Shown here: piece after piece, positions 28,070-53,897 of the stretch
Numbering within the stretch: position 1 is the stretch's first letter
How the letters are laid out: each line of letters starts with the position of its first letter
Source of the DNA: a virus
Lineage: Duplodnaviria > Caudoviricetes
Length of the DNA: 53,941 nt
Strand: one strand, 5' to 3'
IMG/VR virus record: IMGVR_UViG_3300024275_000010
Span: 1 to 53,941 of that record
The notes under the pieces: generated by a model
Database searches by the model: none
Told to the model about the DNA's origin: nothing
The model's input: the letters and a program-made list of their open reading frames with translations, nothing else
Translations under genes and position numbers: made by a program

Positions 28070-29674
28070 ATGCTGACCAGGGCCAATATTCCCAACATAA
28101 TTTTGGCATTGATCGTCTTTGCTGTAGCTGTGCTATTGTTCGCCGGTCCTGGTCATTCAGCTGCTCCGCCTCCGAGCTTTTCGGTGCCGAGCTTTTCCGC
28201 TTATGAAGATGCCGGCACTCTGCAAGTCCCTGTGACAAAGTCCAAGAAGGCGAATAGCTATTCAAAGGTACGGGTTGTCACGGTGGACGGGTCCGCGCAT
28301 GCGGGCACGGATTATCAGGCAGTCGATACCACACTGACATTCGGCAACAACGTGCTGACAATCAATGTGCCTGTGCCGGTCATCAACCGTGCAGATTACC
28401 AGCCCGACAGATCTTTCCAGATCAAGCTTATTGCAGTGCGCAATGCTGCTGTCGGTTCGCCGGGCACGATCAGCATTCAAGACCGTGGGTCCCCGCCGCC
28501 GGTCTCTGACGTTTGCCCCAATGGCACAGCCAAGCCTCCGAGTGGCCCCTGTCCAGAGGCAAATGCACCCCCTATCGCAGACAATTTCAGCATTGAGGAT
28601 TACACCGAATATACCTGGTACGGTCCCCCACCCGCTGGCTCGGGCTTGCCGCCCAACCGTGGTGGCCTGGCTCCGGTCAGTCCGGACTCAGTCGGTGCTT
28701 TCCGCTTCAACTGTGCGGCAGGGCAGGTGGCTCAGTTTGATCCGATCGTGTTCCCAGGACAGGTCAAGGCTGGTCACCTCCACCAATTCTGGGGCAATAC
28801 CTCTATCCAGCCCGACTCAAATTATTCGACCATGCGGGTCAAGGGCGGTTCTACCTGCGACAATCGCTCAAGTGGCACAGTGGCGATCAACCGCACAGGT
28901 TATTGGGCACCGGCCATGCTGGACGGAGCGGGCAATGTCGTCTTGCCCGACTATATCAATACTTATTACAAGCAAGTTCCGCACACAGACCCTGGATGTG
29001 GATTCCCAGACGCCACGACCACCCCCCCACACATCGGTATCTGCACGGACCTACCCAACGGCATCACATTCGTGTTCGGCTGGAACCCGTTGACGGGCAA
29101 GGGCGGACCTAATGATCCCAACAGTGGTGATCATTGGGTGATGTGGTATGAGTGCTGGTCAGACCTCATCGGCAGCCCTTCCGAAGTCGCTTCGGCAAGG
29201 GGACAGTTTCATTCAATTGCCCAGGTGGTGGCTGCTGGTTGTCCGGCAGGGGACGTTCTGGTCTCGCAAGGCGTCATGCCTCAGTGCTGGGACGGCAAGA
29301 ATTTGGACGTGCCAGACCACCGGTCACACTTGGCTTTTTATGGCCCTGACGCGCCTATCCGTTGTCCGACCGATCACCCCTATCAAATGGTCGGGGCGCA
29401 GTTCCGTCTTCACTACACCACGGACGCTAACTTTGTAGCGGGCAAGTGGCACTACAGCTGCGACATGGACGGTATGGAGGCTGGCACATGCCTTCACTTT
29501 GACTATATGGAGGCTTGGTCTCCGGCCGCAAAAAGCCGTTGGTTCCGCAACTGCATTGATGGCCACCTAACCGCTGCCCAGGGCGACCTTTGCGATCGTA
29601 AGCAAATGAAGGAAGCCGGTGCGCCGCCAGAAGGCTGGCCACGGCACCGACTGGTGCCTGTACCGCCGATGTGA
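28070..29674 (+). CDS. exported Calx-beta + DUF1996 protein
   Basis: Signal peptide; TVDGSAHAGTDY (Calx-beta); FDPIVFPG, HLHQFWGN, NRTGYWAP, PQCWDGKNLD..DHRSH, CP..HP, LHFDYM (DUF1996). Confidence 0.85.
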   Translation: MLTRANIPNIILALIVFAVAVLLFAGPGHSAAPPPSFSVPSFSAYEDAGTLQVPVTKSKKANSYSKVRVVTVDGSAHAGTDYQAVDTTLTFGNNVLTINVPVPVINRADYQPDRSFQIKLIAVRNAAVGSPGTISIQDRGSPPPVSDVCPNGTAKPPSGPCPEANAPPIADNFSIEDYTEYTWYGPPPAGSGLPPNRGGLAPVSPDSVGAFRFNCAAGQVAQFDPIVFPGQVKAGHLHQFWGNTSIQPDSNYSTMRVKGGSTCDNRSSGTVAINRTGYWAPAMLDGAGNVVLPDYINTYYKQVPHTDPGCGFPDATTTPPHIGICTDLPNGITFVFGWNPLTGKGGPNDPNSGDHWVMWYECWSDLIGSPSEVASARGQFHSIAQVVAAGCPAGDVLVSQGVMPQCWDGKNLDVPDHRSHLAFYGPDAPIRCPTDHPYQMVGAQFRLHYTTDANFVAGKWHYSCDMDGMEAGTCLHFDYMEAWSPAAKSRWFRNCIDGHLTAAQGDLCDRKQMKEAGAPPEGWPRHRLVPVPPM

Positions 29675-30871: not shown

Positions 30872-32509
30872 TCAAAAATCATCGAATGCCTCCAGAATGT
30901 CAGACAGCACCATCGCTGAAAGACCTTTCTTCTGCTTAAGATTGCGCAATATGTAGCGATCAATTGAATTGCGGGCGATGAGGTCGGTATAATTTGAGCC
31001 GCCGATCATGCCACGTCGGTCAATGCGGTCCTCACTTTGCCAGCGGTCCAGCGCATTAAAGCTATTGCTGTAGTAAAGTGCCTGGGTGCAAACGGTCTGA
31101 AGTCCGTCCGTGCCGGTGCCCGCTGATTGGGGATTGGCCAGGAACCCACGCACACTTGGGTCCATGATGAATGTCATCTTGGCATTGTGTCTGGCTTCGT
31201 CGCTGCCGGTATATTCGGAGAAATTGATCTTGGCAGAGCGCATTGCTTCGGCCAAGATTCTCCGGTCCTCGATGAACCTGGTCCACAAGACCTGCTTGCC
31301 TTCCTTAGCATCAAGATATTCCAGGGCAGCAATTGCCCTGGGATTCTTCTCCACCGGCATCAGCCTGATCGGCACACCCCGTTCGTCAATGATGAAGCCA
31401 TTGGCAATTTGCTGAACCTTTGTGAAGGCGGCGGTAACGCTGGTGACAGGCACGACTTTGCCGTCCGCCAATTCCGCAATCAGCTCTTGCTTGACCTGGG
31501 CGATCAGCCTGACCTGCTCCGTCGTCAGATCAAGCAACCAATCTGAATAATGCTTGGGGATATAGCCAATTTGCTCCTTGGTCACGCGGTAGGTGAATGG
31601 TTCCACCTTGCGCTTGAACTCATCCAAATTCTGCACACCGGTGACGCTGACCCTGGTGCCCTTGACCGTTTGCAGGCAATACTTGGCCTTGAATGTGGTG
31701 AGATATTTTATACCCAAGATGTTCTCGTCCAGCCAAACTAGCTGGGCCCATTCGTCTGTCAGATCCTTGGCGATTGGTGTGCCGGTGAGGATTGTGCGGT
31801 AAGAACTGAATGGTTTGAGCTTGAGCATCTTGTCGTGCCGGATGCTCTGGTTCATGATGTGTTGGCTCTCGTCCGCGACGATGTGAAGCTTGCCCTTGTG
31901 TGCCTGGCAGAATTCCAATACCGCTTCCCGCGCCTTTTTTCCTCTCAGCGCGTCGTAATTAACAGAGAACCATTTCAGCTCATCCCCTTGCCACTTCAAA
32001 ATTTCTGGTAGGGGCTTATTGCGCCAATAATCGCCCTTGTATAATGGGCCATGGTCTTTAGGCAATTCGGATTCAATCCATTGCCGGTGCACACCTTTTT
32101 TGGTGACGACCAGCACACCGGTGATTTCCCCAGCCAGGAACAATTGACAACTGCGGTCTATCGCTACCTTAGTCTTGCCGGTGCCCTGCTCCATGAATTG
32201 TCCAAAGAAACGCTTGCCCTGGCAGCGATTGAATGCCACCAATTGATGAGGGTCAGGCTCACGTTTGAACTGGAAATTAATGGGAATGTGAACGGACTCA
32301 AACAACTCAATATCATTGCTTGCCCCTTGGACTTCCAGGGCTGGAAAATGAGCCTTGATGTAATCAAGATTGTGCTTGGTATTCTCAAGCCTCAACCCAC
32401 CACCCTTCAGCCAATTGCGTCTGCCCTCCAGAGCTGGGAGCATAGCCAGAACGGTCGGCGTGGCCCTGGTCATCAGGGTGATCTTATCATCTTCAAGCTT
32501 GGCGATCAT
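30872..32509 (-). CDS. SNF2-family helicase
   Basis: MEQGTGKT, VADESQH, LTGTP, SAGTGTDGLQ, QSEDRIDR motifs. Confidence 0.92.
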   Translation of the reverse strand: MIAKLEDDKITLMTRATPTVLAMLPALEGRRNWLKGGGLRLENTKHNLDYIKAHFPALEVQGASNDIELFESVHIPINFQFKREPDPHQLVAFNRCQGKRFFGQFMEQGTGKTKVAIDRSCQLFLAGEITGVLVVTKKGVHRQWIESELPKDHGPLYKGDYWRNKPLPEILKWQGDELKWFSVNYDALRGKKAREAVLEFCQAHKGKLHIVADESQHIMNQSIRHDKMLKLKPFSSYRTILTGTPIAKDLTDEWAQLVWLDENILGIKYLTTFKAKYCLQTVKGTRVSVTGVQNLDEFKRKVEPFTYRVTKEQIGYIPKHYSDWLLDLTTEQVRLIAQVKQELIAELADGKVVPVTSVTAAFTKVQQIANGFIIDERGVPIRLMPVEKNPRAIAALEYLDAKEGKQVLWTRFIEDRRILAEAMRSAKINFSEYTGSDEARHNAKMTFIMDPSVRGFLANPQSAGTGTDGLQTVCTQALYYSNSFNALDRWQSEDRIDRRGMIGGSNYTDLIARNSIDRYILRNLKQKKGLSAMVLSDILEAFDDF

Positions 32510-37261: not shown

Positions 37262-37478
37262 ACGCTCCTTAGAGTTGGTGGGTCGTTTCTGGCTTCCCAA
37301 TACGATCATTCTCGGCCAAATTGACAAAAAAGAAAAGAGAATTCTTTCATTATAATTCAAGCACTTAGAAGAAAGTTTCAAAAAAGATCAAAAAAACACG
37401 TTTCTTTTTGAATTGTCTTGGCCGATAAGGGATCTGGCGGTTCACCTTGTCCGCTGCAAGAAAAGGTACAATGAGATT
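37262..37478. promoter_or_regulatory. AT-rich divergent control region
   Basis: Separates - and + gene blocks; A-tracts; degenerate third copy of promoter element (AAATTGACAAAAAAGAAAA ~37318); TACAAT at 37467-37472. Confidence 0.6.
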
Positions 37479-38297
37479 ATGGCCAAGAAAGACCAAGCCC
37501 TGGTGCCCACGGGACCAGGCGACCAGTCGGTAGCGATCGCCGACGATTTCTTCCAATCACAAGCGGGTGCGGGCCTTGACAATGTCACAGCTGCTGACAT
37601 GTTGGTGCCCAGACTCACAATTCTCCAAAGCTTGTCACCTCAGCTCAAGCCACGTGACGCTGCTTATATAGAAGGCGCCAAGGTCGGCGACATCTGTGAT
37701 GTCGGCACCGGCCAATTGTTCCCAGGCACTATCCTGTTCCTACCGGTTTATTACCGCAAGGACTATCTGGAATGGGCGCCACGCTCGTCTGGTGGTGGCC
37801 TGGTAGCTATCCACAGCGATCCGGCAATTCTCGAGCGCACAACCCGCAATGACAAGAAGCAGCCCCTGTTGCCCAATGGCAACTTGGTAGCGGAAACAGC
37901 CCAATTCTACGGGTTCAACCTTTCTGCGCAGCGGCAGATGTGCTTTATTCCCATGGCAAGCACCCAACTGAAGAAGGCGCGCAAATGGATCACCATGGCC
38001 GCTGGCGAAAAGCTGCGTAGGCGTGATGGATCTGAGTTCACAGCGCCATTATTCTACCGTGCTTATGAGCTGGGCACAGCGGAAGAAAGCAATGCCCAGG
38101 GAGATTGGGCAGGGTGGAAGGTCGATCGCGGTCCTGCTCTGAATGAGATGGAGTTCGACGGCACGCCTTGGCAAACCGTTGCCCAGGCAGCGGCCGACTT
38201 CCGGCTCTCGATCATGGCTGGTGAAGCCAAGGGCGACATCTCCGACATGAACAGCGACATCGAGGGCGAAGTCAGTCACGAAACTGCGGAGATGTAA
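37479..38297 (+). CDS. putative ssDNA-binding protein
   Basis: D..VPRL.ILQSLSPQ, M.STQLK..RKW motifs; acidic C-terminal tail. Confidence 0.6.
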   Translation: MAKKDQALVPTGPGDQSVAIADDFFQSQAGAGLDNVTAADMLVPRLTILQSLSPQLKPRDAAYIEGAKVGDICDVGTGQLFPGTILFLPVYYRKDYLEWAPRSSGGGLVAIHSDPAILERTTRNDKKQPLLPNGNLVAETAQFYGFNLSAQRQMCFIPMASTQLKKARKWITMAAGEKLRRRDGSEFTAPLFYRAYELGTAEESNAQGDWAGWKVDRGPALNEMEFDGTPWQTVAQAAADFRLSIMAGEAKGDISDMNSDIEGEVSHETAEM

Positions 38298-38870
38298 ATG
38301 AGCAGTTCCTCGGAAGATTTCAGCTTCGAGGAGCAGGGGGACGTCGCCGCGTCCCCCGACGCTCTGTCCAAGTTGAACGCAAAACTGGCAGAAGCCATTG
38401 AGCTCAAGACCATCGTTGATACGATGGAAGAGGACTTGAAGGCGGCCAAGCAGCAGCTGAACAATCTCAACACCCAGGTCATCCCGGACATGATGGCCGA
38501 ATTGGGCATGGAGCAGGTCACCCAGCGTGGGTGGCAGATTAAGGTCAGCGAGTTCGTCAGTGGCTCCTTGCCTAAGGAAGCTGATAAGCGTGATCTGGCA
38601 ATCAGCTGGCTGACCATTCACGACGCTGATGACCTTATCAAGACGCACCTGGCGGTTGATTTCTCCAGGTCGCAGCACAATGAGGCGCTGAGCCTGGCGG
38701 CACAGATTGAAGAGCAGGGCTTTTTGCCAACGGTGGAAAGCACGGTTCACCCGCAGACCCTTTGCGCCTTTGCGCGGGAACGCCTCAAGAATGGCGAAGC
38801 CCTCGACACGGAAGTGTTGGGGCTGTACACTGGCAGGGTTGCAAAGTTCAAAAAGCTGGGAGAGGACTAA
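38298..38870 (+). CDS. conserved replication-region protein (coiled coil, VHPQTL motif)
   Basis: IPDMM..LG, VHPQTL..F.RE; GGAG RBS. Confidence 0.65.
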   Translation: MSSSSEDFSFEEQGDVAASPDALSKLNAKLAEAIELKTIVDTMEEDLKAAKQQLNNLNTQVIPDMMAELGMEQVTQRGWQIKVSEFVSGSLPKEADKRDLAISWLTIHDADDLIKTHLAVDFSRSQHNEALSLAAQIEEQGFLPTVESTVHPQTLCAFARERLKNGEALDTEVLGLYTGRVAKFKKLGED

Positions 38871-39396
38871 TGATTTACAAGTTGACCTTTGGGCATCAGA
38901 CGATGCTCATTGACAGTGAAACCCTGGACCCTGGCGAACTTCGTAACCTCAAGGACCTGGGCCATTGTGCACACTTCACCCTTGAGCGTAACAATCCAGA
39001 CCGTCTGCCGGGCATGGACCATGATCCGTTGGACGATATCGCTAAGGAAATAGTGGGTGGAAGAAAGTATTCCTCACCCACATTCAATCCAATTCTCAAT
39101 CAAGCCATTCATCGTGTGAATGAGCGGGGGTTGCAGTGATGGACGCGGGGTTCACACCTGGACCATGGGATATAAGCCTCCAAGGCAACGTCATCGTACA
39201 ATCCGATAGCAGACAGTTTGTTTGCGATCTGAACGGGGTTGTTGGGCATGATGCCAATCTCATCAAGACAGCTCCTGAGCTTTATGATGTGTTGGTTCTG
39301 GTCGATGAAATGTTTTCTTCCCCTGGCAGCATAAACAAGAACTCTGTTCGCGATAAGGTTCGTACCATCCTTGCACAAGTGAGAGGCGAGCGATGA
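38870..39396 (+). CDS. two small genes (38870-39139; 39136-39396 with TPGPW...ANLI..APEL motif)
   Basis: Coupled ORFs with RBSs. Confidence 0.55.
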
Positions 39397-40319
39397 CCAT
39401 CTCCATCATCGGTGCCGGCATGGCAGGGCTGTTGGCAGGAGCCATGTTCCGGCAGGAGGCGCAGATCTATGAGGCTGCCGCAAGCTTGCCGAATAATCAT
39501 CATGCCCTGCTGCGGTTCAGGTCAGACGAGATAGCTCAGCACTTGAACATTGAGTTCTCCCAAGTTGATGTGATGAAAATCGTCAAGCCCTGGCGCAATA
39601 AGATCGCTGAGGCTGTGGGCTATTCACTCAAGTGCAATGGCAAGGCGTCATTGCGGTCAATCCGCTCCGCTGAAGGCAAGGTGGACAAACGCTTCATCGC
39701 GCCGCCAGATTTCATCCATCAGCTTGAGGAGCTGCAGACCAATGAGATCAGGTTTGATGCAAAGATCGGTCGTGCATGGATCGATCAATATGATAACAAT
39801 GCTGGTCCGATCATTAGCACAATGCCGATGGGCTCGCTTATGAGTCTGTTGGAATATCCGGAGCCCCTTGAATTCAGCTACCGCCATGGCCATGTGATCA
39901 AGGCGGAACTTGAGCTGCCGAGCGACCTTTGTGCGACGGTCTATTACCCCGACCCAAACACACCAATGATCAGAGCAACCTTGACGAGTGACTTGCTGCA
40001 GGTGGAGTTGGTTGAGGAATATGACCGCAACAAATTTTCTCTAGAATATATCATGGCCCTGGTGCTGCAAGATTTTGGGCTGGAAGAATGCAAATATTCG
40101 GCCGAGCTGGTGCAGCAGAAATATGCCAAGATCACCGCAATTGATGACCGTGCCAGACGCAAGTTCATCATGTGGGCCACGGACAATTTCAACATATACA
40201 GCCTTGGCCGGTTTGCAGTTTGGAAGCCAGGGCTATTGCTAGACGACGTGTTTCATGATGTGCGCAAAATCCAAGCCATGATGCGCAATGGCACCAATTA
40301 TCATGCGAGGGTGAACTAA
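39393..40319 (+). CDS. FAD-dependent oxidoreductase, UDP-galactopyranose-mutase-like
   Basis: IIGAGMAGL Rossmann motif; IISTMP; YYPDP..P..R; IYSLGRFAVW. Confidence 0.75.
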   Translation: MTISIIGAGMAGLLAGAMFRQEAQIYEAAASLPNNHHALLRFRSDEIAQHLNIEFSQVDVMKIVKPWRNKIAEAVGYSLKCNGKASLRSIRSAEGKVDKRFIAPPDFIHQLEELQTNEIRFDAKIGRAWIDQYDNNAGPIISTMPMGSLMSLLEYPEPLEFSYRHGHVIKAELELPSDLCATVYYPDPNTPMIRATLTSDLLQVELVEEYDRNKFSLEYIMALVLQDFGLEECKYSAELVQQKYAKITAIDDRARRKFIMWATDNFNIYSLGRFAVWKPGLLLDDVFHDVRKIQAMMRNGTNYHARVN

Positions 40320-41072
40320 ATGCAAGTCTATTTGATCGATTATACCGGCAGCGGTCACTTTGACAAGCTGTATGCTGCAAGGCTCTTGGCCTACACAAAG
40401 AACACCCGCCTGGAACAATCTCCTTCCGGTCTGGGCAAGTTCATGGACATGCCGGAATCCGACCTGCTGGACGAGCTTGATTATATCAGCAAGACCCTCC
40501 GCAGCAGCTGGGAGTTTGTGGATTACACATTCCAGATCGTCGGTGTGACAAGGGCATTCACCCATCAGCTGGTGCGCACCCGCACCGCCAGCTATGCCCA
40601 ACAGGCGCAGCGCGTCGTCAACATGGGCGAGTTCGGCCACCTGGTGCCGGACACGGTGAAGGGTGACCCCATCAAAGAGGTAATTTGGGACGGGGTGATG
40701 GAGACAATCAGCTCTGCTTATCAGCAATTGCAGGGCATGGGGGTGCCCAACCAAGATTGCCGTGGCCTATTGCCGACCAACGTGTTGACCAACATCATCA
40801 CCAAGATGAATCTACGCACCCTGGCGGACCTGATCGGCAAGCGCAAGAATTTGCGTGCCCAAGGGGAATATGCGGACGTCGCCAGGGCGATGGAGCGGTG
40901 TGTGCTAGAAGTTCACCCATGGACCAAGGCCTTTCTTGATCCGGAGCGACTGCAGACGCCCAATTTGGACCAGCTGCTCAAGCAAGCCCTGGGTGACAAG
41001 TCACCGGTGGACAAGCCAGAGATCAATGGTGCCTTGAAAGAGCTGGATGGCCTGAAAGGGACTTGGGGGTGA
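40320..41072 (+). CDS. thyX: ThyX-like flavin-dependent thymidylate synthase homolog with altered active site
   Basis: SSWEF..YTF.I.GVTRAFTHQLVRTRTASYAQQAQR; QDCRGLLP; MNLRTL; AQGEY. Confidence 0.8.
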   Translation: MQVYLIDYTGSGHFDKLYAARLLAYTKNTRLEQSPSGLGKFMDMPESDLLDELDYISKTLRSSWEFVDYTFQIVGVTRAFTHQLVRTRTASYAQQAQRVVNMGEFGHLVPDTVKGDPIKEVIWDGVMETISSAYQQLQGMGVPNQDCRGLLPTNVLTNIITKMNLRTLADLIGKRKNLRAQGEYADVARAMERCVLEVHPWTKAFLDPERLQTPNLDQLLKQALGDKSPVDKPEINGALKELDGLKGTWG

Positions 41073-41385
41073 AGAAGCGCCCTTATAACCACATGCAAGC
41101 CCAGCTTGATAGGGCTATGAAAAATGCCGGTTGGCACAACTGGTATTTCTCTCGTGGCCATTTCTACGGCTCTGGAAAGGTGCTGCGGAAGCTGATGCGG
41201 CAACACAGTTGGCGGAGGAAGCATTGACAAGGCTTGAGCTGCTAGAACATGTCAACCAGCTCAACACTTTGGCCGAACCTGGCGAACGCTATTGGACGGT
41301 GACCGTGCTCTACAACACGGTGGTCTATAAAGCTGTTGGCAAAGAAGCCAAGATTTTTGAAGTTGAGAAGGGTGTGCCGGCATGA
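41069..41385 (+). CDS. two small genes (41069-41227, 52 aa; 41224-41385, 53 aa)
   Basis: GTGA and TTGA overlaps; GGAGG RBS before TTG 41224. Confidence 0.45.
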
Positions 41386-41831
41386 CCATCCCCATCATCG
41401 TCGTAGACCTCGACGGCACGCTGTGTAACTCTGCTCACAGGGAGCACTTAGCCAGGGCAGGTGACTGGGACGCATTCCATGGCGCTCTGCTGGACGATGA
41501 GCCGTGGCCCGACGTCAAGAAGCTGCTAGAAAGCTTGTTCAATGATTTCATCATGGTGGCGCTGACAGGACGCAATCAGAAATACCAGATGATGACGCTC
41601 AAGTGGCTGCAGCGCAATGAATGCGTGCTGTTTGACGAGCTGCTGATGCGGCCGGACGATTGCTATCTTTCCGACACTGAGATCAAACCTCAGTTGCTGG
41701 ACGAATTTCTCGAGCGCAATGGCAAGAGCCACAGTGATGTGCTCTTCATTCTCGAGGACCGAGACAAGATGGTGGAGACTTGGCGTAATTTAGGCCACAC
41801 TTGCTACCAGGTGAGGGCTGGAGGATATTGA
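41382..41831 (+). CDS. HAD phosphatase (T4 PNK phosphatase-domain-like, no kinase domain)
   Basis: DLDGTL, LTGR, LLMRP..., K, EDR motifs. Confidence 0.88.
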   Translation: MTIPIIVVDLDGTLCNSAHREHLARAGDWDAFHGALLDDEPWPDVKKLLESLFNDFIMVALTGRNQKYQMMTLKWLQRNECVLFDELLMRPDDCYLSDTEIKPQLLDEFLERNGKSHSDVLFILEDRDKMVETWRNLGHTCYQVRAGGY

Positions 41832-42377
41832 TGATTGAATGGCAGCCAATTCCGTCAGAGGTCGATATCTCCAAGGCTCCGTTTAATGGAGATGAGGTTC
41901 TTCTCTATGCCGATAGCGCTACCGTTAACGTGGTTCGCCTAGCGTGGTGGGACAATGGCGATGACGAAGGATTTGGCGGACCTGAAGACTTGGGCTGGTG
42001 GAGTGCTAAGCATAGCGTTACATCGGAGCATATTCACGACGCACCAGGTTGCAAATGGTCGCATTGGTCACCGTTCAGTCCTCCCGAGAATACATCATGA
42101 CATTCTGGGAGCGCGGCGGGTGCTGGTTGCTAATGGCTATGCTGTCGATTGGATTTTGGACCACACTTTTGATATGGGTGAACAAGTGAGCACGGACTTG
42201 AAAGCGGCAGAGATGGACCAGGCCTTTGAGAAAAGGTTCGGGGTCAAAGTGGAGACGGTTTGGAATATCTTTTCAAACAGTTATGTCACCACCACGATGG
42301 AAGACACCGAAGCAGGGTTGATCCCCGAGCAGGTAGGATGGCTCAAGGGTTGGAGCGATAGGAGTTCACAGGCATGA
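41831..42377 (+). CDS. three small genes (41831-42100 WQPI-type; 42097-42189 TM peptide; 42186-42377)
   Basis: GGAGG RBS; 4-bp overlaps. Confidence 0.45.
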
Positions 42378-42781
42378 GTGATTTCGTACCCAAGGCACTG
42401 GAACAGGCAGCGAGCTTATACCGTGGCCGCAATGCCCTGTACGGCGACAATTACAAGAATTTCGGCAAGCTGGTCGAGGTCCTGTTTCCGGAAGGAATAC
42501 CGTCTGGACCTATGGAATCAATGATCAGCTATCACAATCGCACAGGCGTATTGTTCATGGTGCTCAGCAAGCTGTCCCGCTACTGCGCCAACTTTGGCGA
42601 TGGTGGGCACTCTGATTCGCTGGATGATTTGGCGGTCTATGCCATGATGCTCAATGAGTTGGATGAGGAGATACGGGCAGAGCAGAAGTATCACGAAAGC
42701 CAGAACACCAACCAGGTGGAGGGCCAAACATATAGTGCAGGCCAAAATACCACCCAGGGCGGCGGGATCGATCCGGAATGA
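42374..42781 (+). CDS. DUF6378/Nmad-like all-helical protein
   Basis: R...YGDNY..F, K..RY, HSDSLDDLAVYA motifs; AGGAG RBS. Confidence 0.65.
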   Translation: MSDFVPKALEQAASLYRGRNALYGDNYKNFGKLVEVLFPEGIPSGPMESMISYHNRTGVLFMVLSKLSRYCANFGDGGHSDSLDDLAVYAMMLNELDEEIRAEQKYHESQNTNQVEGQTYSAGQNTTQGGGIDPE

Positions 42782-43314
42782 GGGCGTTCGTGTTCGACAC
42801 GGAAACGACAGGGCTCGTGAAGAATAGCCTCATACCCTTGCCATCCCAGCCCAGAATAATTGAATTTTTTGGTAACACGGTGGACGATGAAACAGGGGAG
42901 GTGATAAATGAAATCGAATTCATTTGCGACCCTGGCATTGAGCTACCGCCAGAGATCACCCGCATCACCGGCATCAAACCGGAAGACATTAAGGGTGCAG
43001 GTCCGTTTAAGCAATATGCTCCCCAGCTATGCCAGATTCTTGCGGAGGCTGATGCTGCTGTTGCTCACAATCTTAGCTTTGACAGGGTTCTGGTGGAGTG
43101 TGATTGTGCTCGTGCTGAAATTGTACCATCATGGCCTAACCGGATGATCTGCACTGTAGAGCAAACAGAGTGGATCAAGGGCCACCGGTTGAGCCTCACA
43201 GACCTACACAGTGAGCTATTTGGGGAACCGTTCAAGGGCGCTCACCGTGCCAGGCATGACGTTCAAGCCCTGACCAGGTGCTACGTTGAATTGAGGAAAA
43301 GGGGTGAGATATGA
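42778..43314 (+). CDS. dnaQ: DEDDh 3'-5' exonuclease (DnaQ/epsilon-like)
   Basis: FDTETTG, VAHNLSFD, AHRARHDV. Confidence 0.92.
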   Translation: MRAFVFDTETTGLVKNSLIPLPSQPRIIEFFGNTVDDETGEVINEIEFICDPGIELPPEITRITGIKPEDIKGAGPFKQYAPQLCQILAEADAAVAHNLSFDRVLVECDCARAEIVPSWPNRMICTVEQTEWIKGHRLSLTDLHSELFGEPFKGAHRARHDVQALTRCYVELRKRGEI

Positions 43315-44093
43315 CCAATAGTCGTAGCGACAGGGTGAGCCTTCTAGCAAAGAAGGTGATGGTCCTCAAAGAATGCAGGGGCATCACATATTCCCAAATA
43401 GCAACTGAGTGTGGTGGACTTAAGATTGGCATGGTTGCTGCGAGGATTTCTGGACTGGTAAATTGCCATTCAATCCGGCCTGATCTCGAACCCCATGTTC
43501 TGGCTTGGGTGAGGAGGCAAGGGCTGTGACCAACATCAAGGACGACCTGGAACAAGCCATGCGCCTGGTGGCGCCGGTCACTGCCAGCATCGGCTTGGCC
43601 CTGGAATGTAAGACCTTCAGACGCAGCACATTGAAAGGGTCAATCGCGGCATTGCGCAAAGCCGCAGATTTGTTGGAGGGGATCAAGTGAATGTACGGTA
43701 GGAGCTACCAAGTCACCTATTGGGACGACCCAGGGGTGAGTTATCCCGGCAAACATTGGGTGGTGCTCGAGATCACTTGGTCCTGTGCGGAACGGCACCG
43801 CGCTGAAGTCATCAGTCGCCATTCTGACCGCAAAGAAGCAGAGACGATGGCAAAGGTGCTTTGGGAGGCGCTAGGTGATTGACGCTCGTACCAAATTCAA
43901 ATTCCTCGGCAACAGATCCGTCGTTGAGGGTGCAGGGGTAGGTCTTGAATGCCATCACTGCCAGGTGAGCTGGGGCGGTTGTGCGGCTGAGTGCTGCTGC
44001 CCGCAGTGCGGAGCTCCCAAGGGCTATTGGGGTGAAGCCTTGGGCAAGTGTTTCTGTGAAGAGTGCGGTGGACTTCCAAATGCTCAAGATTAG
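43311..44093 (+). CDS. four small genes (43311-43529, 43526-43690, 43691-43882, 43875-44093 Cys-rich)
   Basis: Coupled ORFs with RBSs. Confidence 0.5.
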
Positions 44094-47019
44094 GACCGGC
44101 TATTCCTTCCGCGCTGCAGCGGGCAAGCTTGACAAGGTGCTGGACCGGTTGCAGGAGCTGGGACACACCAACGCACCGATCACCGACAGGGCATCAACCT
44201 TCGGCTTTTACCGTTGGAAGAAGGCCTGTGAAGAACGGGGCATGAAGCCATGCTTTGGTGTTGAGCTGGCGGTCACTAGCTCCATCAACGCTAAGAAGCC
44301 GTCGGTGGATTATTGGACGTTCCTGGCAAAAGACAGCATTGAACCCCTCAACTTTCTGGTCACCTTGGCCACCCAACAATTCCGCTACCAGCCATTGCTG
44401 CGGCTTGACCAGGCTCTGGAAGCTGAGGGTATATTCAAGATGGTGGGGCATCGCCCACCCAATGAGCTTTGGGAGCTAGACGCTCTGCCCGACGACACAG
44501 CCATTGGCTTGATGCCGAGCACGCCTGTAGCTGTTGTGAAGCGAGCACTCGCCAAGGGCTGGGCCTTTGCCGCCAGCAGCGATAACCGCTTCCCCAGGGC
44601 AGAGGACCAGGGCTTTTACGAGGTCGTGGCAGGACGCAATGCCGAGAGCCAGACCTATCCGCAATGGATCTTGTCTGAAGAGGAATGGCATCAGTCTATC
44701 GACCATCACAGCTTGCCCGAGATGACGGTGCGAGGGGCATTGGCCCAATCAGAGCGATGGCTCATGGCTTGCAACGCCCAGCTGCAAAAATCATCACTGC
44801 CAAAGTTCCAGGCGGACAAGACCCTCAGCGAGATGTGTCTGGACGGGGCAAAGCGCCTGGGTGTGAACCTCAAGGACAAGACCTATTCTGCCAGGCTAAG
44901 TAAGGAACTCCAACTCATCAAGGCTAAAGGCTATGAGGACTATTTTTACATCGTCGCAGACATTTGTACTTGGGCACGTAGCAGAATGCTGGTGGGACCA
45001 GCACGAGGTTCGTCCTGCGGTAGTCTGGTTTGCTATTTGCTCGGCATTACTACTGTTGATCCTATACCTTTTGGGCTGATCTTTGAAAGATTCGTAGACG
45101 TTAACCGGTCTGACATGCCGGACATTGACATTGACTTTTCTGACCAGCAAAGAAGCCAGGTGTTCCGCTACATAGAGCAAAAATATGGGCAAGAGCATGT
45201 AGCCAGGTTGGGCACGGTGGCAATGTTCCAGCCACGCTCGGCGATTGCTGAGATCGGTATGGGGTTGAACATACCCAAGTGGATGTGCGACGCCCTGGCG
45301 GAATCAATGCCTGCCTTGAGCAAGGGCGACAGCCGCTCCGGCACCGGCATCAAGATGGGCCTGCAAAGCAGCGACATCGGCAAGCGCATCATTGAAAACT
45401 ACCCAGAAGCCTGGGTGATGGCAGAAGCGGAAGACCACCCGCGCCACTACAGCCAGCACGCCGCAGGGATTGTGATTTCAGAACAGCCAATCGTCAAATA
45501 TGTAGCGGTGGACCACAGGACAGGCGCCACCATGTGCGACAAAAAGGACGCAGAAGATGGCTACAATCTACTCAAGATCGATTGTCTCGGCCTCACTCAA
45601 TTGTCTGTGTTTGAAGACACGCTCGAATTGGCTGGATTGCCAAATAACACACTGGAAGGCCTTCCCCTGGATGACCCCAAGGCCTTTGATGTTCTCAATG
45701 AGGCTCGGTGGGCGGGAATATTCCAGTTTAACGGCCAAGCACTTCAATCTATCACTAAGCAGTTCCGGGTGGATAAGTTTGACGACATTGTCTCGGTCAC
45801 CGCTCTCGGACGTCCTGGACCCTTGGCATCTGGCGGTGCTCATGAGTGGATTAGGCGTCGTAACGGCACAAATCCGGTTGCCTATCCCCATCCGATCTTT
45901 GAGCAATATTTGTCTGATACCCTGGGGATTGTGCTCTACCAGGAACAGGTGATGGAGATCGGCCGTAATGTGGGTGATCTGTCCTGGGAGCAGGTAACGC
46001 TGCTACGCAAAGCCATGAGCAAATCGCTCGGCAAGGAATATTTTGACCAATTCGGTGATCCTTGGAAAAAGGGTGCGATATCCAAAGGGGTTGACCCATC
46101 GGCTACAATTAAAATCTGGGACGACTTGTGTGCTTATGGTGCCTGGTCATTCAACAAAAGCCACTCTGTGGCGTACGGACTCATCAGCTATTGGTGCTGC
46201 TGGCTCAAGGCCTACCATCCGTTCGAATTCGCGGCCGCAACGTTAACGCACGAAAACAACCCCCAGCGCCAGATCCAGCTGCTGCGGGAAATGAAGGCTG
46301 AAGGCTATGACTACGTTCCGGTTGACGCTGAGTTATCAGGACGTAAATGGGCAGTGGGTGGACATGGCAGTGAACGTCACCTCGTTGGACCTTTGCATAA
46401 TGTCAAGGGCATTGGACCAAAGCTTGTCAATCAAATTATCGGAGCGCGGAATCGTAATGAGCCAATGCCGGACAGGGCAAAGAAGCTCCTAGAAAACCCC
46501 AAGACCGACATAGACAGTCTTTGGCCGGTGCGCGACGGGTTCCGTCGTCACCTGCCGGACCCGTTGGCTAAGAACATCGTCACCCACCCCACTCCGATCA
46601 TTGATGCCCAGCCCAATTGCAAAGACCAAGAGTTCTTGTTCTTCTGCACCCCGACCAAGATCAACCCCAGGGACGAAAATGAGATCGTCAATATCGCCAG
46701 GCGCGGTGGCAAGCGCATTGACGACGGTTCGCCTACGATCAGCCTAAACCTACAGTTGACGGACGACACCGACACTATCTTTGGCAAGGTGACCAGGTGG
46801 CAGTTTGAGAAGCTTGGGCGACCGATCGTGGATCATGGACGCATCGGTAAGGCACTTTACGCAGTGAAGGGCAAGATGAGGGCCAATGCTGGCTTCAGAA
46901 TGATAACAATCAGCAATGTGCGGTTCATCGGCGACATGGACAAGGGCGTCGGCACTGCCGAAACCCGCGACCAGGGTGGCGGCGGGTCCGACAGCAATAA
47001 TAGTGGGATTGGGGAATAG
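44080..47019 (+). CDS. dnaE: DNA polymerase III alpha subunit (family C, DnaE-like)
   Basis: GPARGSSCGSLV.YLLGIT, FERF, PDIDIDF, HAAG.VI, LLKIDCLGL, YQEQVM, FNKSHS..Y; start at ATG 44080. Confidence 0.96.
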   Translation: MLKIRTGYSFRAAAGKLDKVLDRLQELGHTNAPITDRASTFGFYRWKKACEERGMKPCFGVELAVTSSINAKKPSVDYWTFLAKDSIEPLNFLVTLATQQFRYQPLLRLDQALEAEGIFKMVGHRPPNELWELDALPDDTAIGLMPSTPVAVVKRALAKGWAFAASSDNRFPRAEDQGFYEVVAGRNAESQTYPQWILSEEEWHQSIDHHSLPEMTVRGALAQSERWLMACNAQLQKSSLPKFQADKTLSEMCLDGAKRLGVNLKDKTYSARLSKELQLIKAKGYEDYFYIVADICTWARSRMLVGPARGSSCGSLVCYLLGITTVDPIPFGLIFERFVDVNRSDMPDIDIDFSDQQRSQVFRYIEQKYGQEHVARLGTVAMFQPRSAIAEIGMGLNIPKWMCDALAESMPALSKGDSRSGTGIKMGLQSSDIGKRIIENYPEAWVMAEAEDHPRHYSQHAAGIVISEQPIVKYVAVDHRTGATMCDKKDAEDGYNLLKIDCLGLTQLSVFEDTLELAGLPNNTLEGLPLDDPKAFDVLNEARWAGIFQFNGQALQSITKQFRVDKFDDIVSVTALGRPGPLASGGAHEWIRRRNGTNPVAYPHPIFEQYLSDTLGIVLYQEQVMEIGRNVGDLSWEQVTLLRKAMSKSLGKEYFDQFGDPWKKGAISKGVDPSATIKIWDDLCAYGAWSFNKSHSVAYGLISYWCCWLKAYHPFEFAAATLTHENNPQRQIQLLREMKAEGYDYVPVDAELSGRKWAVGGHGSERHLVGPLHNVKGIGPKLVNQIIGARNRNEPMPDRAKKLLENPKTDIDSLWPVRDGFRRHLPDPLAKNIVTHPTPIIDAQPNCKDQEFLFFCTPTKINPRDENEIVNIARRGGKRIDDGSPTISLNLQLTDDTDTIFGKVTRWQFEKLGRPIVDHGRIGKALYAVKGKMRANAGFRMITISNVRFIGDMDKGVGTAETRDQGGGGSDSNNSGIGE

Positions 47020-47943: not shown

Positions 47944-50148
47944 GTGAAAATACGCGAACTGACTGACGTTCCGGCAATCAGGGATTACCTCAATAGGGTG
48001 GGGGCGCAACCCAGGAGCCTGAAGTCCGCAGTAGTCAAGCAAACAGCCGGTAAGTATTGGAAAGACCTGGCGGTAATCAGGTTCACAAAGGCCGGTGACG
48101 TTGAATGCTCCACCCTTGAGCATTCGCCCACGGACCTTGAACGGCAGTTGATTAAGGACGCGCTGAGCACCGTCACATGGCCAGAGCTCAAGAAGATGGT
48201 GCGATTGATCGACCCACCGCAGATGGTGAAAGATGCTGCGCCAGAAGATGTGTTTGAGTTCCGTGACAGGGACGGACAGATCATCATGGTGCAGGTCAAG
48301 AATGAGCTGCCGAGTGGTGACCGCTATTATGCGCCCTGGACCTATTGGGACGATAATCAGTGGCGCATGTGCGAGCCTGACGGGCCATTGCCATTGTTCA
48401 ACGCCGACAAGATCGGCGAGAACACCACCGTATTCATCCATGAAGGGGCCAAGGCAGCGCGGCAGATGCAGCGCATGGTTGATGGGGAGGACAAGGTTCA
48501 ACGGCAAAAGCTGAACGATCACCCCTGGGGACTTGAGCTCAGTGGGGCCTGCCATGTTGGGTGGATTGGCGGCGCTCTGTCGCCCTACCGCACTGACTGG
48601 TCCGTGCTCAAGGCGGCGGGCGTGAAGCGAGCCTACATAGTGGCGGACAACGACGCGCCTGGTAGATCCGCAGTTCCGGCCATATCCAAGCATTTGCGCA
48701 TGCCGACGTTCACAGTGCAATTCACAGACGAGTTTCCAGGTTCATTCGACCTGGCTGACCCATTCCCCAAGAAGATGTACAGTAATGGCGCGGGGGAAAA
48801 GGTTTATATAGGACCAAGCTTCCGCGATTGCCTGCACCCTGCCACCTGGGCCACTGACGTCATCCCACCAGCTAAGGAAGGTGGACGACCAGGCCACGCT
48901 TTGCGGGACAGCTTCAAGGGCATGTGGGCCTACATAGAAGAAGCAGACATGTTCGTCTGCACAGAAATGCCGGAGATCATGCGCAATGAATCTATCCTCA
49001 ACAAGATGCTTGCTAGCTTTAGCCATGTTAACGACACTTGCCGCCTTATCATCAAGGCGTATCAGGGCAGAAGCACGCGTGTCTGCTATCGCCCTGACGT
49101 GGTTGGTCTCAAAGTCACTTTCCGAGGTTCGAGCGCGATAAATTTGCACGTGCCTGGCAATGTCAAGTCCCAGCCTGGCGACCCCAAACCGTTCCTGGAT
49201 TTCATTGATTACTTGTTTGTGAGTGAGAGCGAGCGAGTTGAGGTGCTGCGTTGGCTGGCCACGCTGATCGCCAGGCCTGACATAAGGATGCTTTATGGAC
49301 TACTGCTTATTTCCGAGCGCCAAGGCGTCGGGAAAACTACGTTGGGGGCTAGCATCCTCGCCCCTCTCGTCGGAATTCAGAATGTGGGCTTTCCGGGTGA
49401 AAGCGATGTTACCTCCGCATTCAATGAGTGGGTGGCTCATAAAAGGCTGGCCATTGTATCTGAAATATATTCAGGACAGTCGTGGCGAGCATATCATGCT
49501 CTCAAAAGCGTCATCACTGACAGAGACATTACGGTCAACCAGAAATATATGCGTCAGTATGTCATTGAGAACTGGTGTCACATCTTAGCTTCAAGCAATA
49601 GCATGCGCGCATTGAAGATGGAAAATGACGACAGGCGATGGTTCTACCCAGAAGTGACTGAGGTGCCTTGGCCACGAGATAAGTTTGATGCACTACGCAA
49701 ATGGCTCAACTCCGGTGGCCTTGGGGTCATCAAGCATTGGGCAGAGAATTGGGGCAATTATGTGCTGCAATCAGACCGTGCGCCAATGACAGACCGCAAG
49801 CGGGAGATGATCGAGGGCAGTAGGTCTGAGGCACAGCAGGAAGCGGCAGCCCTGGCTGAAGCTCTGAAAGAGCTAGGCAGGCCGGCAGCCCTGTTGATCA
49901 AAGACGTTGTAGGTTGGTGCCGTACGCACGTTCAGGGCAGGGTGTTCGACACGGATTATGAATTGCGCAAGGCAATGGTTGAGTGCGGGGTGACCGCTTG
50001 GGGCAAGCGCATCAAGGTGGGTGGCAGGCTACAGTATGCGGTGATCAATCCGGCGCTGCTGGACCTGGCTCAACGGTCAGAGGACCAGACAAGTTGCATC
50101 CGCGAGCATTTGGTCAAGTGCACGGACATTATGGATGGGGAGATGTGA
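47944..50148 (+). CDS. TOPRIM primase - SF3-type helicase fusion
   Basis: IHEGAKAA and VADNDAPG (TOPRIM); ERQGVGKT Walker A; LKSVIT, SNS, DRRW. Confidence 0.85.
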   Translation: MKIRELTDVPAIRDYLNRVGAQPRSLKSAVVKQTAGKYWKDLAVIRFTKAGDVECSTLEHSPTDLERQLIKDALSTVTWPELKKMVRLIDPPQMVKDAAPEDVFEFRDRDGQIIMVQVKNELPSGDRYYAPWTYWDDNQWRMCEPDGPLPLFNADKIGENTTVFIHEGAKAARQMQRMVDGEDKVQRQKLNDHPWGLELSGACHVGWIGGALSPYRTDWSVLKAAGVKRAYIVADNDAPGRSAVPAISKHLRMPTFTVQFTDEFPGSFDLADPFPKKMYSNGAGEKVYIGPSFRDCLHPATWATDVIPPAKEGGRPGHALRDSFKGMWAYIEEADMFVCTEMPEIMRNESILNKMLASFSHVNDTCRLIIKAYQGRSTRVCYRPDVVGLKVTFRGSSAINLHVPGNVKSQPGDPKPFLDFIDYLFVSESERVEVLRWLATLIARPDIRMLYGLLLISERQGVGKTTLGASILAPLVGIQNVGFPGESDVTSAFNEWVAHKRLAIVSEIYSGQSWRAYHALKSVITDRDITVNQKYMRQYVIENWCHILASSNSMRALKMENDDRRWFYPEVTEVPWPRDKFDALRKWLNSGGLGVIKHWAENWGNYVLQSDRAPMTDRKREMIEGSRSEAQQEAAALAEALKELGRPAALLIKDVVGWCRTHVQGRVFDTDYELRKAMVECGVTAWGKRIKVGGRLQYAVINPALLDLAQRSEDQTSCIREHLVKCTDIMDGEM

Positions 50149-53579: not shown

Positions 53580-53897
53580 ATGCGCTACCCAAAGGGCAAA
53601 CGTAACTACCCTCCCTCTTCCTTAGCTAAAAGAATAAGAGGTCATAAGGGTGTTGCCCTACGCAAGAGAAGGATGGCACGTACCAACTGGCTTTGTGAGG
53701 ATTGTTTGGCAGCCACACCCAAGAGGGTAAGACCTGCTAGCGTTGTTGATCATATCCTGCCCCTGGCTATGGGTGGCCTTGATATAGACAGTAACACCCG
53801 CAACCTTTGTGATGAATGCCACGAGATTAGGACAGCGGAACAGTTCGGTAGAGATAAGAAGCCACGCCGTGATGCTGATGGTTGGCCCATTTGGTGA
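53580..53897 (+). CDS. packaging-associated HNH endonuclease
   Basis: CEDC, VVDHILPL..GG, NTRNLCDECH; precedes terS across the genome ends. Confidence 0.9.
   Translation: MRYPKGKRNYPPSSLAKRIRGHKGVALRKRRMARTNWLCEDCLAATPKRVRPASVVDHILPLAMGGLDIDSNTRNLCDECHEIRTAEQFGRDKKPRRDADGWPIW

Follow-up and report, generated by a model that had tools for sequence, protein, structure and literature searches.

A Virus-Only Flavoprotein Paired with a Histidine-Less ThyX in a Phage Replication Module: a Candidate for Thymidine Hypermodification

The DNA considered here is a whole IMG/VR virus record (IMGVR_UViG_3300024275_000010; 53,941 bp, linear, with a CheckV completeness of 94% and a GC content of ~55%), which we call the window and which is also present in Logan contigs assembled from two 2018 soil metagenome runs, one of them possibly the origin of the record. 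Between 39393 and 47019, its plus strand codes, in order, for a flavoprotein, a ThyX, a HAD phosphatase of the PNKP type, a DUF6378-like protein, a DnaQ-like exonuclease, and a DnaE polymerase. The flavoprotein is near-obligately linked to a clade of ThyX proteins that lack the histidine of the ThyX motif, and together the two genes constitute a variant of the ThyX system that has not been described previously. The window module is a distant new member of a known and annotated phage module, and the window phage is distantly related to Pbunavirus and Wifcevirus. We posit that, in a soil phage, the region would act as a module for nucleotide supply and replication, with a core formed by a two-gene unit, the flavoprotein and the His-less ThyX, kept in fixed proportion via translational coupling. 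In this model, the two proteins would act jointly in flavin-dependent chemistry at C5 of dUMP, the product being 5-hydroxymethyl-dUMP, or dUMP with a sugar-derived carbon chain at C5, and not dTMP alone. This C5 step would be the entry to a thymidine hypermodification like that of Pbunavirus, processing of the nucleotide, or of a phosphorylated sugar moiety, would fall to the HAD phosphatase and to DUF6378, with which it is often fused, and the DnaE and DnaQ of the phage would replicate the DNA.

The flavoprotein gene (39393..40319, +; 308 aa) ends in TAA at 40317-40319, and the ATG of the ThyX gene (40320..41072, +; 250 aa) follows at 40320, with zero gap between the two and with GAGG ~10 nt upstream of the ATG. 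Four further junctions of the region are 4-nt overlaps (41382/41385, 42374/42377, 42778/42781, and 43311/43314), and all genes from 37413 to ~50150 lie on the plus strand, much as a sequence-only reading of this DNA had described them: co-oriented and tightly packed, with a stop at 40319 and a start at 40320, and leading into a family C polymerase. A scan for promoters and terminators returned counts equal to the shuffle expectation. How general is this layout? From IMG/VR, 80 loci, many of them incomplete, were gathered with a flavoprotein profile, and 80 with a ThyX profile. In the flavoprotein set, ThyX lies downstream on the same strand in 79/80 loci, at a gap of ≤10 nt in 42/79, and the sole exception ends ~30 nt past the flavoprotein. 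In the ThyX set, the flavoprotein lies upstream in 76/80 loci and in 47/47 of those whose upstream sequence reaches 4500 nt or more; of the four misses, three extend <1 kb upstream and the other 4.1 kb. Such co-occurrence in related phages had been proposed as a check by the sequence-only reading, and the two sets bear it out. Related loci also hold the DUF6378-like gene (65/80), DnaQ (65/80), and DnaE (59/80), and since the same order recurs in 79/80 related metagenomic loci, the arrangement is not due to chance. The coupling of flavoprotein to ThyX is tighter than co-regulation needs; fusions of the two were not found among proteins of 540 to 2000 aa, which is weak evidence.

Compared by megablast with 50,697 phage records, the region gave no match, and relatives are visible at the protein level only. 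In GenBank, the flavoprotein occurs in 362 phage records at 30 to 35% identity, and 364 of the 648 ThyX-bearing phage records match over at least 80% of ThyX. Most of the flavoprotein records are Pseudomonas phages (292/362; those listed are all of Pbunavirus size, ~64 to 67 kb), 27 are Escherichia phages, for which the annotated example, ECML-117, is a Wifcevirus, and the others include Serratia, Rhizobium, Xanthomonas, Xylella, Pantoea, Vibrio, Erwinia, and Ralstonia phages. The pair is also found in quite unlike genomes, namely, Rhizobium phage RHph_Y65 (207 kb), Vibrio phages PVA7 and VA-RY-3 (~41 kb), and Ralstonia phage PY059 (40.6 kb). The parallel to PB1-like phages that the sequence-only reading drew proved sound, as the same gene set occurs in Pbunavirus, Wifcevirus, Kylevirus, and hundreds of metagenomic phages.

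By profile, the window protein is a ThyX: it matches Pfam Thy1 (5.9e-33; 114.7 bits versus a cutoff of 24.8) and passes the equivalog model TIGR02170 (97.0 bits versus a cutoff of 87.9). The ThyX motif is RHRxxSxxxxSxR, a pattern visible in the aligned solved ThyX proteins, and an “extended ThyX motif” was reportedly described by Ulmer et al. in 2008. Where the solved structures read RHR..S....S.R, the window protein reads RTRTASYAQQAQR, with the motif His changed to Thr (RHR to RTR) and the second motif Ser to Ala. The upstream E-H element, which is LEH or FEH in Mycobacterium tuberculosis, Thermotoga maritima, and Corynebacterium glutamicum, is SSWEF in the window (His to Phe), the equivalent of T. 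maritima His178 is Arg, and the Tyr after the motif Arg is Val. “Rewired,” the term of the sequence-only reading, is thus apt, with RTR for RHR and E-F for E-H relative to solved structures. The same changes run through the relatives. Among 79 ThyX genes beside flavoproteins, 72 fit the motif pattern (the 7 outside it were left out), and at motif position 2, these have T in 65, S in 7, and H in none; SSWEF stands in place of E-H in most clade members. The Pbunavirus and Kyle proteins have RTR with FEF, the Rhizobium and Vibrio proteins read RNR, and the Ralstonia protein reads RTR. The arginines equivalent to T. maritima R78, R80, R90, R147, R165, and R174 are invariant in the clade, and the Ser88 position (T. 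maritima numbering) is Ala in the window and S/T/A across the clade; Arg78, Arg80, Ser88, and Arg90 are given as dUMP-binding residues of T. maritima ThyX (PMC3498832). Judged from these alignments, the flavoprotein-linked ThyX is a distinct His-less clade and not a one-sequence quirk, and conversion of dUMP to dTMP with methylenetetrahydrofolate, FAD, and NAD(P)H appears possible for the window protein. Of five viral ThyX sampled from genomes without the flavoprotein, four keep both E-H and RHR (Stygiolobus SRV, Halorubrum Hardycor2, Bacillus Carmen17, and a Staphylococcus phage). The fifth is from Gordonia phage MoiGyank, whose gene 86 (245-1222 of L169), annotated as a “ThyX-like thymidylate synthase,” reads RQR and LEA; no Gordonia group is present among the 362 flavoprotein records, and the Gordonia ThyX-like proteins may form a second, independent divergent ThyX clade.

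The partner is a compact FAD-type flavoprotein with a two-domain fold like those of UDP-galactopyranose mutase (UGM) and protoporphyrinogen oxidase (PPO), and it matches phrog_4828 (5e-51). It has no Pfam match (0 families at E ≤ 10) and no NCBIfam match, and its profile weakly matches the FAD motif of L-amino-acid oxidase (LAAO) and renalase (E ~0.6). Residues 7 to 12 form a GxGxxG within IIGAGMAGLLAG (residues 5 to 16); this N-terminal beta-alpha-beta dinucleotide-binding motif, together with a GR2/amine-oxidase-like overall fold, predicts that the protein binds flavin. The fold is seen in an AlphaFold (AF2) model made from a 32-sequence alignment (pLDDT, 86.3; pTM, 0.79). Foldseek places UGMs first (8e-10; TM, 0.64), followed by PHBH-type hydroxylases, renalase, and PPO. 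The top match of an exhaustive VIA-align search is the T. cruzi UGM 4dsg (Z, 18.8; rmsd, 3.8; 283/308 residues aligned at 18% identity), and the next are PPOs (Z, 16.5 to 17.5; 2ivd at 17.5) and many GR2 flavoenzymes (Z, 14 to 17). Since PPO, VioD, LAAO, and renalase score nearly as high as UGM (Z, 14 to 17.5), the resemblance to UGM is one of fold class only. A six-frame search of the record for the UGM-defining GLF domain (PF03275) returned nothing at E ≤ 10, and at 308 aa, the protein is ~55 to 200 residues shorter than the matched solved UGM chains (363 to 510 aa). From this length, rather than from coordinates, the helical substrate-binding domain of UGM appears to be what is missing. We considered true membership in the UGM (GLF) family and ruled it out, given the absence of the GLF domain and a short length without the three-domain architecture. 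The label “UGM-like,” used in the sequence-only reading, is therefore correct for the fold class of the modeled protein (4dsg at Z 18.8, UGMs first in Foldseek) and not for membership. The protein has 1860 relatives at 90% clustering, none of them named, and 1134 clusters at 50% identity, the best 150 of which are all 251 to 358 aa long. The nearest Atlas clusters are 95 to 100% viral, and the first cellular neighbors are amine-oxidase-family proteins. This family, newly described in our analysis, is large, virus only, and uniform at ~300 aa. Arg, Lys, and His are numerous among its invariant positions, as would suit an anionic substrate.

Downstream of the pair, the HAD phosphatase (41382..41831, +; 149 aa) matches the PNKP phosphatase family PF25109 (5.6e-20; 72.4 bits versus a cutoff of 27.6) and phrog_415/505, carries DLDGT (DxDxT) at residues 9 to 13, and is present in 72/80 related loci. 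The protein is a HAD domain only and lacks the P-loop 5'-kinase domain; in its relative PNK57 of Pbunavirus 14-1, Pfam likewise recognizes HAD domains only, and the C-terminal part is DUF6378-like (phrog_4889) with no P-loop kinase. The DUF6378-like protein of the window (42374..42781, +; 135 aa) is a four-helix protein with a weak match to PF19905. The sequence-only reading gave it the same name. Of the aligned family members, 19/34 match DUF6378 at E ≤ 0.01, and the window protein itself stays under the cutoff (20.4 versus 27.1 bits). In the nearest Atlas clusters, 10 to 33% of the members have DUF6378, phrog_4889 spans the HAD and DUF6378-like domains, and a HAD_PNKP-fused cluster exists in the Atlas too. 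R19, Y23, K66, R69, D81, S82, D85, and Y89 are invariant in the family. The AF2 model (pLDDT, 90.8) has no Protein Data Bank (PDB) match by Foldseek at E ≤ 0.001, and the best of a wide VIA-align search reaches Z 7.7, to generic helical hairpins; by these fold searches, kinship to MazG and the label “Nmad-like” are neither shown nor excluded. An ORFan (41955..42377, +; 140 aa as the longest open reading frame [ORF]; no family match; 0/80 loci) separates the HAD and DUF6378-like genes, which are fused in Pbunavirus. Its sole database match is an 85-aa protein, 99% identical, on a 51.8-kb contig, and the real gene may therefore be shorter than 140 aa.

What might such a pair make? A 2025 preprint by Yee et al. 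reports that, at the TG sites of virion DNA from Pbunaviruses F8 and 14-1, thymidine derivatives with masses of 362 and 390 u occur, that these adducts are sugar derived and replace about a quarter of the T, and that restriction enzymes with TG in their sites fail on F8 DNA (PMC12191111). Pbunavirus, the same preprint states, was previously believed to be unmodified, none of the earlier implicated modification genes is present, and hypermodification decides whether END nucleases and restriction systems stop these phages (PMC12191111). The portion of the preprint available to us names no biosynthetic genes for the modification (PMC12191111), and our literature search found no later paper assigning them; two later papers that cite the preprint touch on hypermodification only briefly. 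Since Pbunavirus DNA is modified although the family has none of the known modification genes, this pair stands as the best candidate for C5 chemistry. The elimination leaves the His-less ThyX as the sole recognizable uracil-C5 enzyme and the flavoprotein as the sole recognizable redox- or sugar-type enzyme conserved from Pbunavirus to the window. Pfam scans of 36 window ORFs recognized neither a glycosyltransferase nor a kinase, and a six-frame search of the whole 53,941-bp record gave no match to GT1, GT2, or GLF, in agreement with the sequence-only reading, which had recognized no glycosyltransferase or nucleotide kinase. Nor did ThyA, HMUDK, ADDT, or TET/JBP (PF00303, PF18723, PF18724, and PF12851) appear at E ≤ 1 in six frames of the record; the aGPT-Pplase families were not searched under their own accessions. 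The short-chain dehydrogenase/reductase (SDR) in the modules of Wifcevirus and Kylevirus and the MazG-like enzyme in that of Kylevirus phage Kyle fit small-molecule tailoring. As precedents, 5-hydroxymethyl-dUMP is reported as an acid-trapped ThyX intermediate (PMC3498832), and the FAD oxidoreductase of PaMx11 (PMC8989533) and the hypothesized hmdUMP synthase of SP-15 (PMC5977210), both taken up below, can be named. Taking the comparative analysis together, we infer that the pair may perform flavin-dependent C5 chemistry on dUMP that feeds thymidine hypermodification, that the window phage would do the same, and that the HAD and DUF6378 proteins would contribute processing steps, a reading that we favor tentatively and would put at somewhat below an even chance.

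Several findings weigh against this reading. Plain dTMP synthesis is entirely possible, since the window ThyX passes the TIGR02170 equivalog cutoff (97 versus 87.9 bits, with 114.7 bits for Thy1) and keeps every dUMP-binding arginine. About three-quarters of Pbunavirus T is canonical and the adduct is TG specific, which argues for a post-replicative enzyme working at the level of DNA, and no recognizable DNA-binding transferase is found among the module genes. The adducts of F8 and 14-1 differ, yet the flavoprotein is 97% and the ThyX 94% identical between these phages, so the pair cannot alone set the adduct type. The linkage counts are not independent events, because the loci come for the most part from a single broad phage lineage in which synteny is conserved. 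One of the five sampled ThyX without a flavoprotein, that of MoiGyank, is also His-less, and no flavoprotein homologue was detected in Bacillus phage SP-15, although the empty result of that search shows little. The non-canonical pyrimidine proposed in the sequence-only reading thus gains from the thymidine adducts reported for Pbunavirus (PMC12191111) and loses from the equivalog score and from a TG specificity that points to a DNA-level step not obviously supplied by the module; its interpretation as a whole is partly supported. Could the pair, then, simply be an ordinary two-component thymidylate supply? In that case, which we regard as nearly as likely as the modification reading, the His-less ThyX would make only dTMP and, deprived of the histidines that the canonical enzyme employs around its flavin/NADPH/folate site, would rely on the flavoprotein to donate flavin or to serve as an NAD(P)H-dependent reductase, HAD and DUF6378 would serve nucleotide salvage or end healing, and hypermodification in the relatives would be the work of other genes. 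The ThyX scores, the conserved arginines, the predominance of canonical T in Pbunavirus, and the near identity of the pair in F8 and 14-1 despite different adducts all suit such a supply; phage ThyX genes, moreover, often lie beside a dUTPase, ribonucleotide reductase, or dCTP deaminase for dTMP (e.g., RHph_Y65 and Hardycor2), and a reductase partner would fit the tight coupling equally well. The Pbunavirus adduct would be left without a C5 enzyme, however, as no ThyA, TET/JBP, or HMUDK was found in the window and none is reported in Pbunavirus, and the HAD-DUF6378 partnership and the Wifcevirus/Kylevirus SDR would go unexplained. Flavoproteins of the GR2 type (UGM/PPO/amine-oxidase fold) are also not known as the usual flavin reductases.

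Does the flavoprotein need ThyX at all? It might act on DNA or on a sugar donor independently, with ThyX supplying dTMP and the adjacency reflecting co-regulation, an alternative that we consider unlikely. One version would be an oxidase of thymine or of a thymine adduct in DNA, with a precedent in the FAD oxidoreductase gp47, which acts on modified thymine in PaMx11 DNA (PMC8989533); another would be a UGM-type mutase making a furanose nucleotide-sugar donor for an unrecognized transferase, and the enzymes listed for a glycosylating Rhizobium phage include a true UGM (PMC13326640). UGM is the best fold match of the flavoprotein, and the Pbunavirus adducts, sugar derived and TG specific, point to DNA-level chemistry. 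Such independence sits poorly with the absence of a GLF domain at E ≤ 10, with 308 aa versus 363 to 510 aa, with the lack of a recognizable glycosyltransferase, and with a stop-start abutment and near-obligate link to one ThyX clade that exceed co-regulation. Another unlikely proposal concerns the downstream genes: HAD and DUF6378 could be a PNKP-like end-healing unit for host-inflicted tRNA or DNA breaks, which would make the module simply one of replication and repair. The PNKP phosphatase domain is indeed the best Pfam match of the HAD protein, PHROGs label the relatives polynucleotide kinase, and GenBank labels Pbunavirus gp57 polynucleotide kinase/phosphorylase; yet the 149-aa HAD protein has no kinase domain, the Pbunavirus partner is DUF6378-like and not a P-loop kinase, and no RNA ligase partner was recognized among the ORFs scanned. 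Within the modification reading, finally, we speculate on a specific and quite unlikely route, in which the pair, as a new two-component flavin enzyme, would attach a carbon unit derived from a sugar directly to dUMP at C5. The UGM-like partner would form an iminium between flavin N5 and sugar C1, as UGM does, the ThyX-like partner would present dUMP for nucleophilic attack by its C5, in the way that ThyX does with the methylene iminium at flavin N5, the adduct would result from reduction or from ring closure, and HAD would strip the terminal sugar phosphate. The reported Pbunavirus masses agree with this (dU [228] minus H plus pentitol-1-yl [135] gives 362, and dU minus H plus hexosyl [163] gives 390), but mass alone cannot decide, since an O-linked tetritol or pentose on 5-hydroxymethyldeoxyuridine (5-hmdU) fits 362/390 equally.

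Two further observations touch on the modification and the DNA that would carry it. In a 27-gene comparison of F8 with 14-1, the most divergent gene is 14-1 ORF70 (434 aa, no Pfam match; 17997-19301 of L087), which is 57% identical next to neighbors at 91 to 100% and lacks a homologue in the window. For the HAD-DUF6378 fusion, the identity between the two phages is 79%, a difference that is not diagnostic because much of it lies in a low-complexity linker. In the window itself, TG/CA is over-represented (odds, 1.27) and TA is depleted (0.53), and the 12 most avoided 6-bp palindromes are all without TG/CA (CCGCGG, 0 observed versus 13 expected; AGCGCT, 4 versus 18). This suggests host restriction pressure on sites without TG, although the difference between palindrome classes, a post hoc comparison, is not significant (16 versus 48 palindromes; P = 0.33), and 4-mers trend the opposite way. 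The EcoP1I site is presumably AGACC, without TG/CA; we did not find it in the BASEL main text.

The remaining genes place the pair next to phage replication functions. The DnaQ-like DEDDh 3'-5' exonuclease (42778..43314, +; 178 aa) matches PF00929 (RNase_T; 1.1e-18), phrog_192 (4.3e-38), and NCBIfam exonuclease/epsilon models. The DnaE-type family C DNA polymerase (43981..47019, +; 1012 aa; phrog_405, 5e-216) has its PHP (PF02811; 5e-09, 37.1 bits), polymerase core (DNA_pol3_alpha, PF07733; 6.4e-66, 223.1 bits), and finger (PF17657; 1e-37, 129.5 bits) domains all above cutoff and is ~35% identical to the polymerases of Luteibacter phage Pluto, Wifcevirus, and Pbunavirus. Pfam and NCBIfam matches thus agree with the identities given to ThyX, HAD, and DnaE/DnaQ by the sequence-only reading. 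After DnaE follows a 734-aa DUF5906/VapE-like primase-helicase with a weak Toprim match (47944-50148, +), and an SNF2-related helicase at 30872-32509 (-) is 29% identical to the 14-1 helicase ORF53; with the one on the opposite strand and the other after DnaE, the replication genes fall into two divergent blocks, as in Pbunavirus. Upstream of the module lie a Pam3 gp34-like protein (37413..38297, +; 294 aa; PF23977, 2.3e-51; phrog_2402, function unknown), with a homologue in 67/80 related loci and, in 14-1, as ORF51, located downstream of the helicase, and a Pam3 gp33-like/DUF7307 protein (38298..38870, +; 190 aa; PF23984, 2.8e-22; phrog_2378, function unknown), found in 64/80 loci. Between ThyX and HAD, there is a small, putatively coding ORF with a TTG start (41131..41385, +; 84 aa; no Pfam or PHROG match, 0/80 related loci), and between DnaQ and DnaE, there are two more (43311-43529, 72 aa, and 43691-43882, 63 aa; both +), with no family match and none in related loci. 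Elsewhere in the window, the structural block ends with a 534-aa protein (28070-29674, +) that combines Calx-beta (5.1e-15) with DUF1996 (3.8e-26), a pairing unusual for a phage; this protein may be associated with the tail and bind glycans or act as an enzyme. At the right end, an HNH endonuclease (53580-53897, +), and at the left end, a small terminase subunit (37-528, +), look like an HNH-terminase packaging pair split by the linearization point of the record.

Pbunaviruses are among the most-used therapeutic phages against Pseudomonas aeruginosa, and the comparison narrows the candidates for their modification to a conserved gene pair common to Pbunavirus, Wifcevirus, and a large group of uncultured phages. 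Should a modified nucleotide be the product, a hypermodified base would for the first time be reached by a route based on ThyX, and the flavin chemistry would be new. If it makes dTMP only, it would still be an undescribed two-component form of an enzyme family studied as an antibiotic target. Were the direct coupling of a sugar-derived unit true, the pair would provide the biosynthetic entry step that has been missing for the hypermodified thymidine of Pbunavirus, Wifcevirus, and >1000 metagenomic phage lineages, including the window phage.

How does the module compare with systems that are better known? TrmFO, MnmG, and RlmFO are described as flavoproteins that transfer carbon to uracil C5 via a flavin N5-iminium (PMC8989533), and the likeness we have in mind is only one of how they work: they act on RNA, none is among the 50 best structural matches of the flavoprotein, and no membership is claimed. 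The 5-hmdU pathways of phages M6, ViI, PaMx11, SP10, and PhiW-14 likewise have a thymidylate-synthase-family enzyme beside phage replication genes, and in relatives of the window phage, T is partly replaced (PMC8989533, PMC12191111); in contrast, the window synthase is of the ThyX type and comes with a flavoprotein, and no ThyA-type dUMP hydroxymethylase, 5-HMUDK, ADDT, or TET/JBP was found. Closer in kind is Bacillus phage SP-15, with two Thy1-family genes, for which a ThyX homologue has been hypothesized as the hmdUMP synthase and whose base is 5-dihydroxypentyluracil (PMC5977210). As in the window, a ThyX-family protein is there suspected of making a non-thymine C5-substituted dUMP, the adduct being a polyol chain of about five carbons (PMC5977210); SP-15 also has a teichoic-acid-like sugar gene cluster that is absent in the window.

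The nearest comparison is with the annotated relatives. Pbunavirus (phiKTN6 gp55-gp65; 14-1 ORF55-ORF65), Wifcevirus ECML-117, and Kylevirus Pantoea phage Kyle share the gene order of the window, that is, flavoprotein, ThyX, HAD/DUF6378 (“PNK”), exonuclease, DnaE, and helicase, at identities of 32 to 35% for the flavoprotein, ~38% for ThyX, 42% for the exonuclease, and 35% for DnaE. There are also differences. HAD and the DUF6378-like protein are separate genes with an ORFan between them in the window and one fused protein in Pbunavirus, the flavoprotein adjoins ThyX in the window whereas five small ORFs intervene in Pbunavirus, the Pam3 gp33/gp34-like genes lie upstream of the module in the window and downstream of the helicase in 14-1, and the window genome is 54 kb compared with 64 to 73 kb. 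The modules of Kyle and ECML-117 include a FabG-like SDR, and in that of Kyle, ThyX and PNK are separated by a gene for a MazG-like NTP pyrophosphatase; the window has neither. The SDR genes (ECML-117, 11179-11862 of L174; Kyle, 13104-13781 of L002) are extra tailoring candidates. Compared with canonical ThyX (T. maritima TM0449 and M. tuberculosis ThyX; PDB 1o26 and 2af6), the window protein belongs to the same Thy1 family and keeps the dUMP-binding arginines, whereas its clade has given up the motif and E-H histidines and always travels with a partner flavoprotein.

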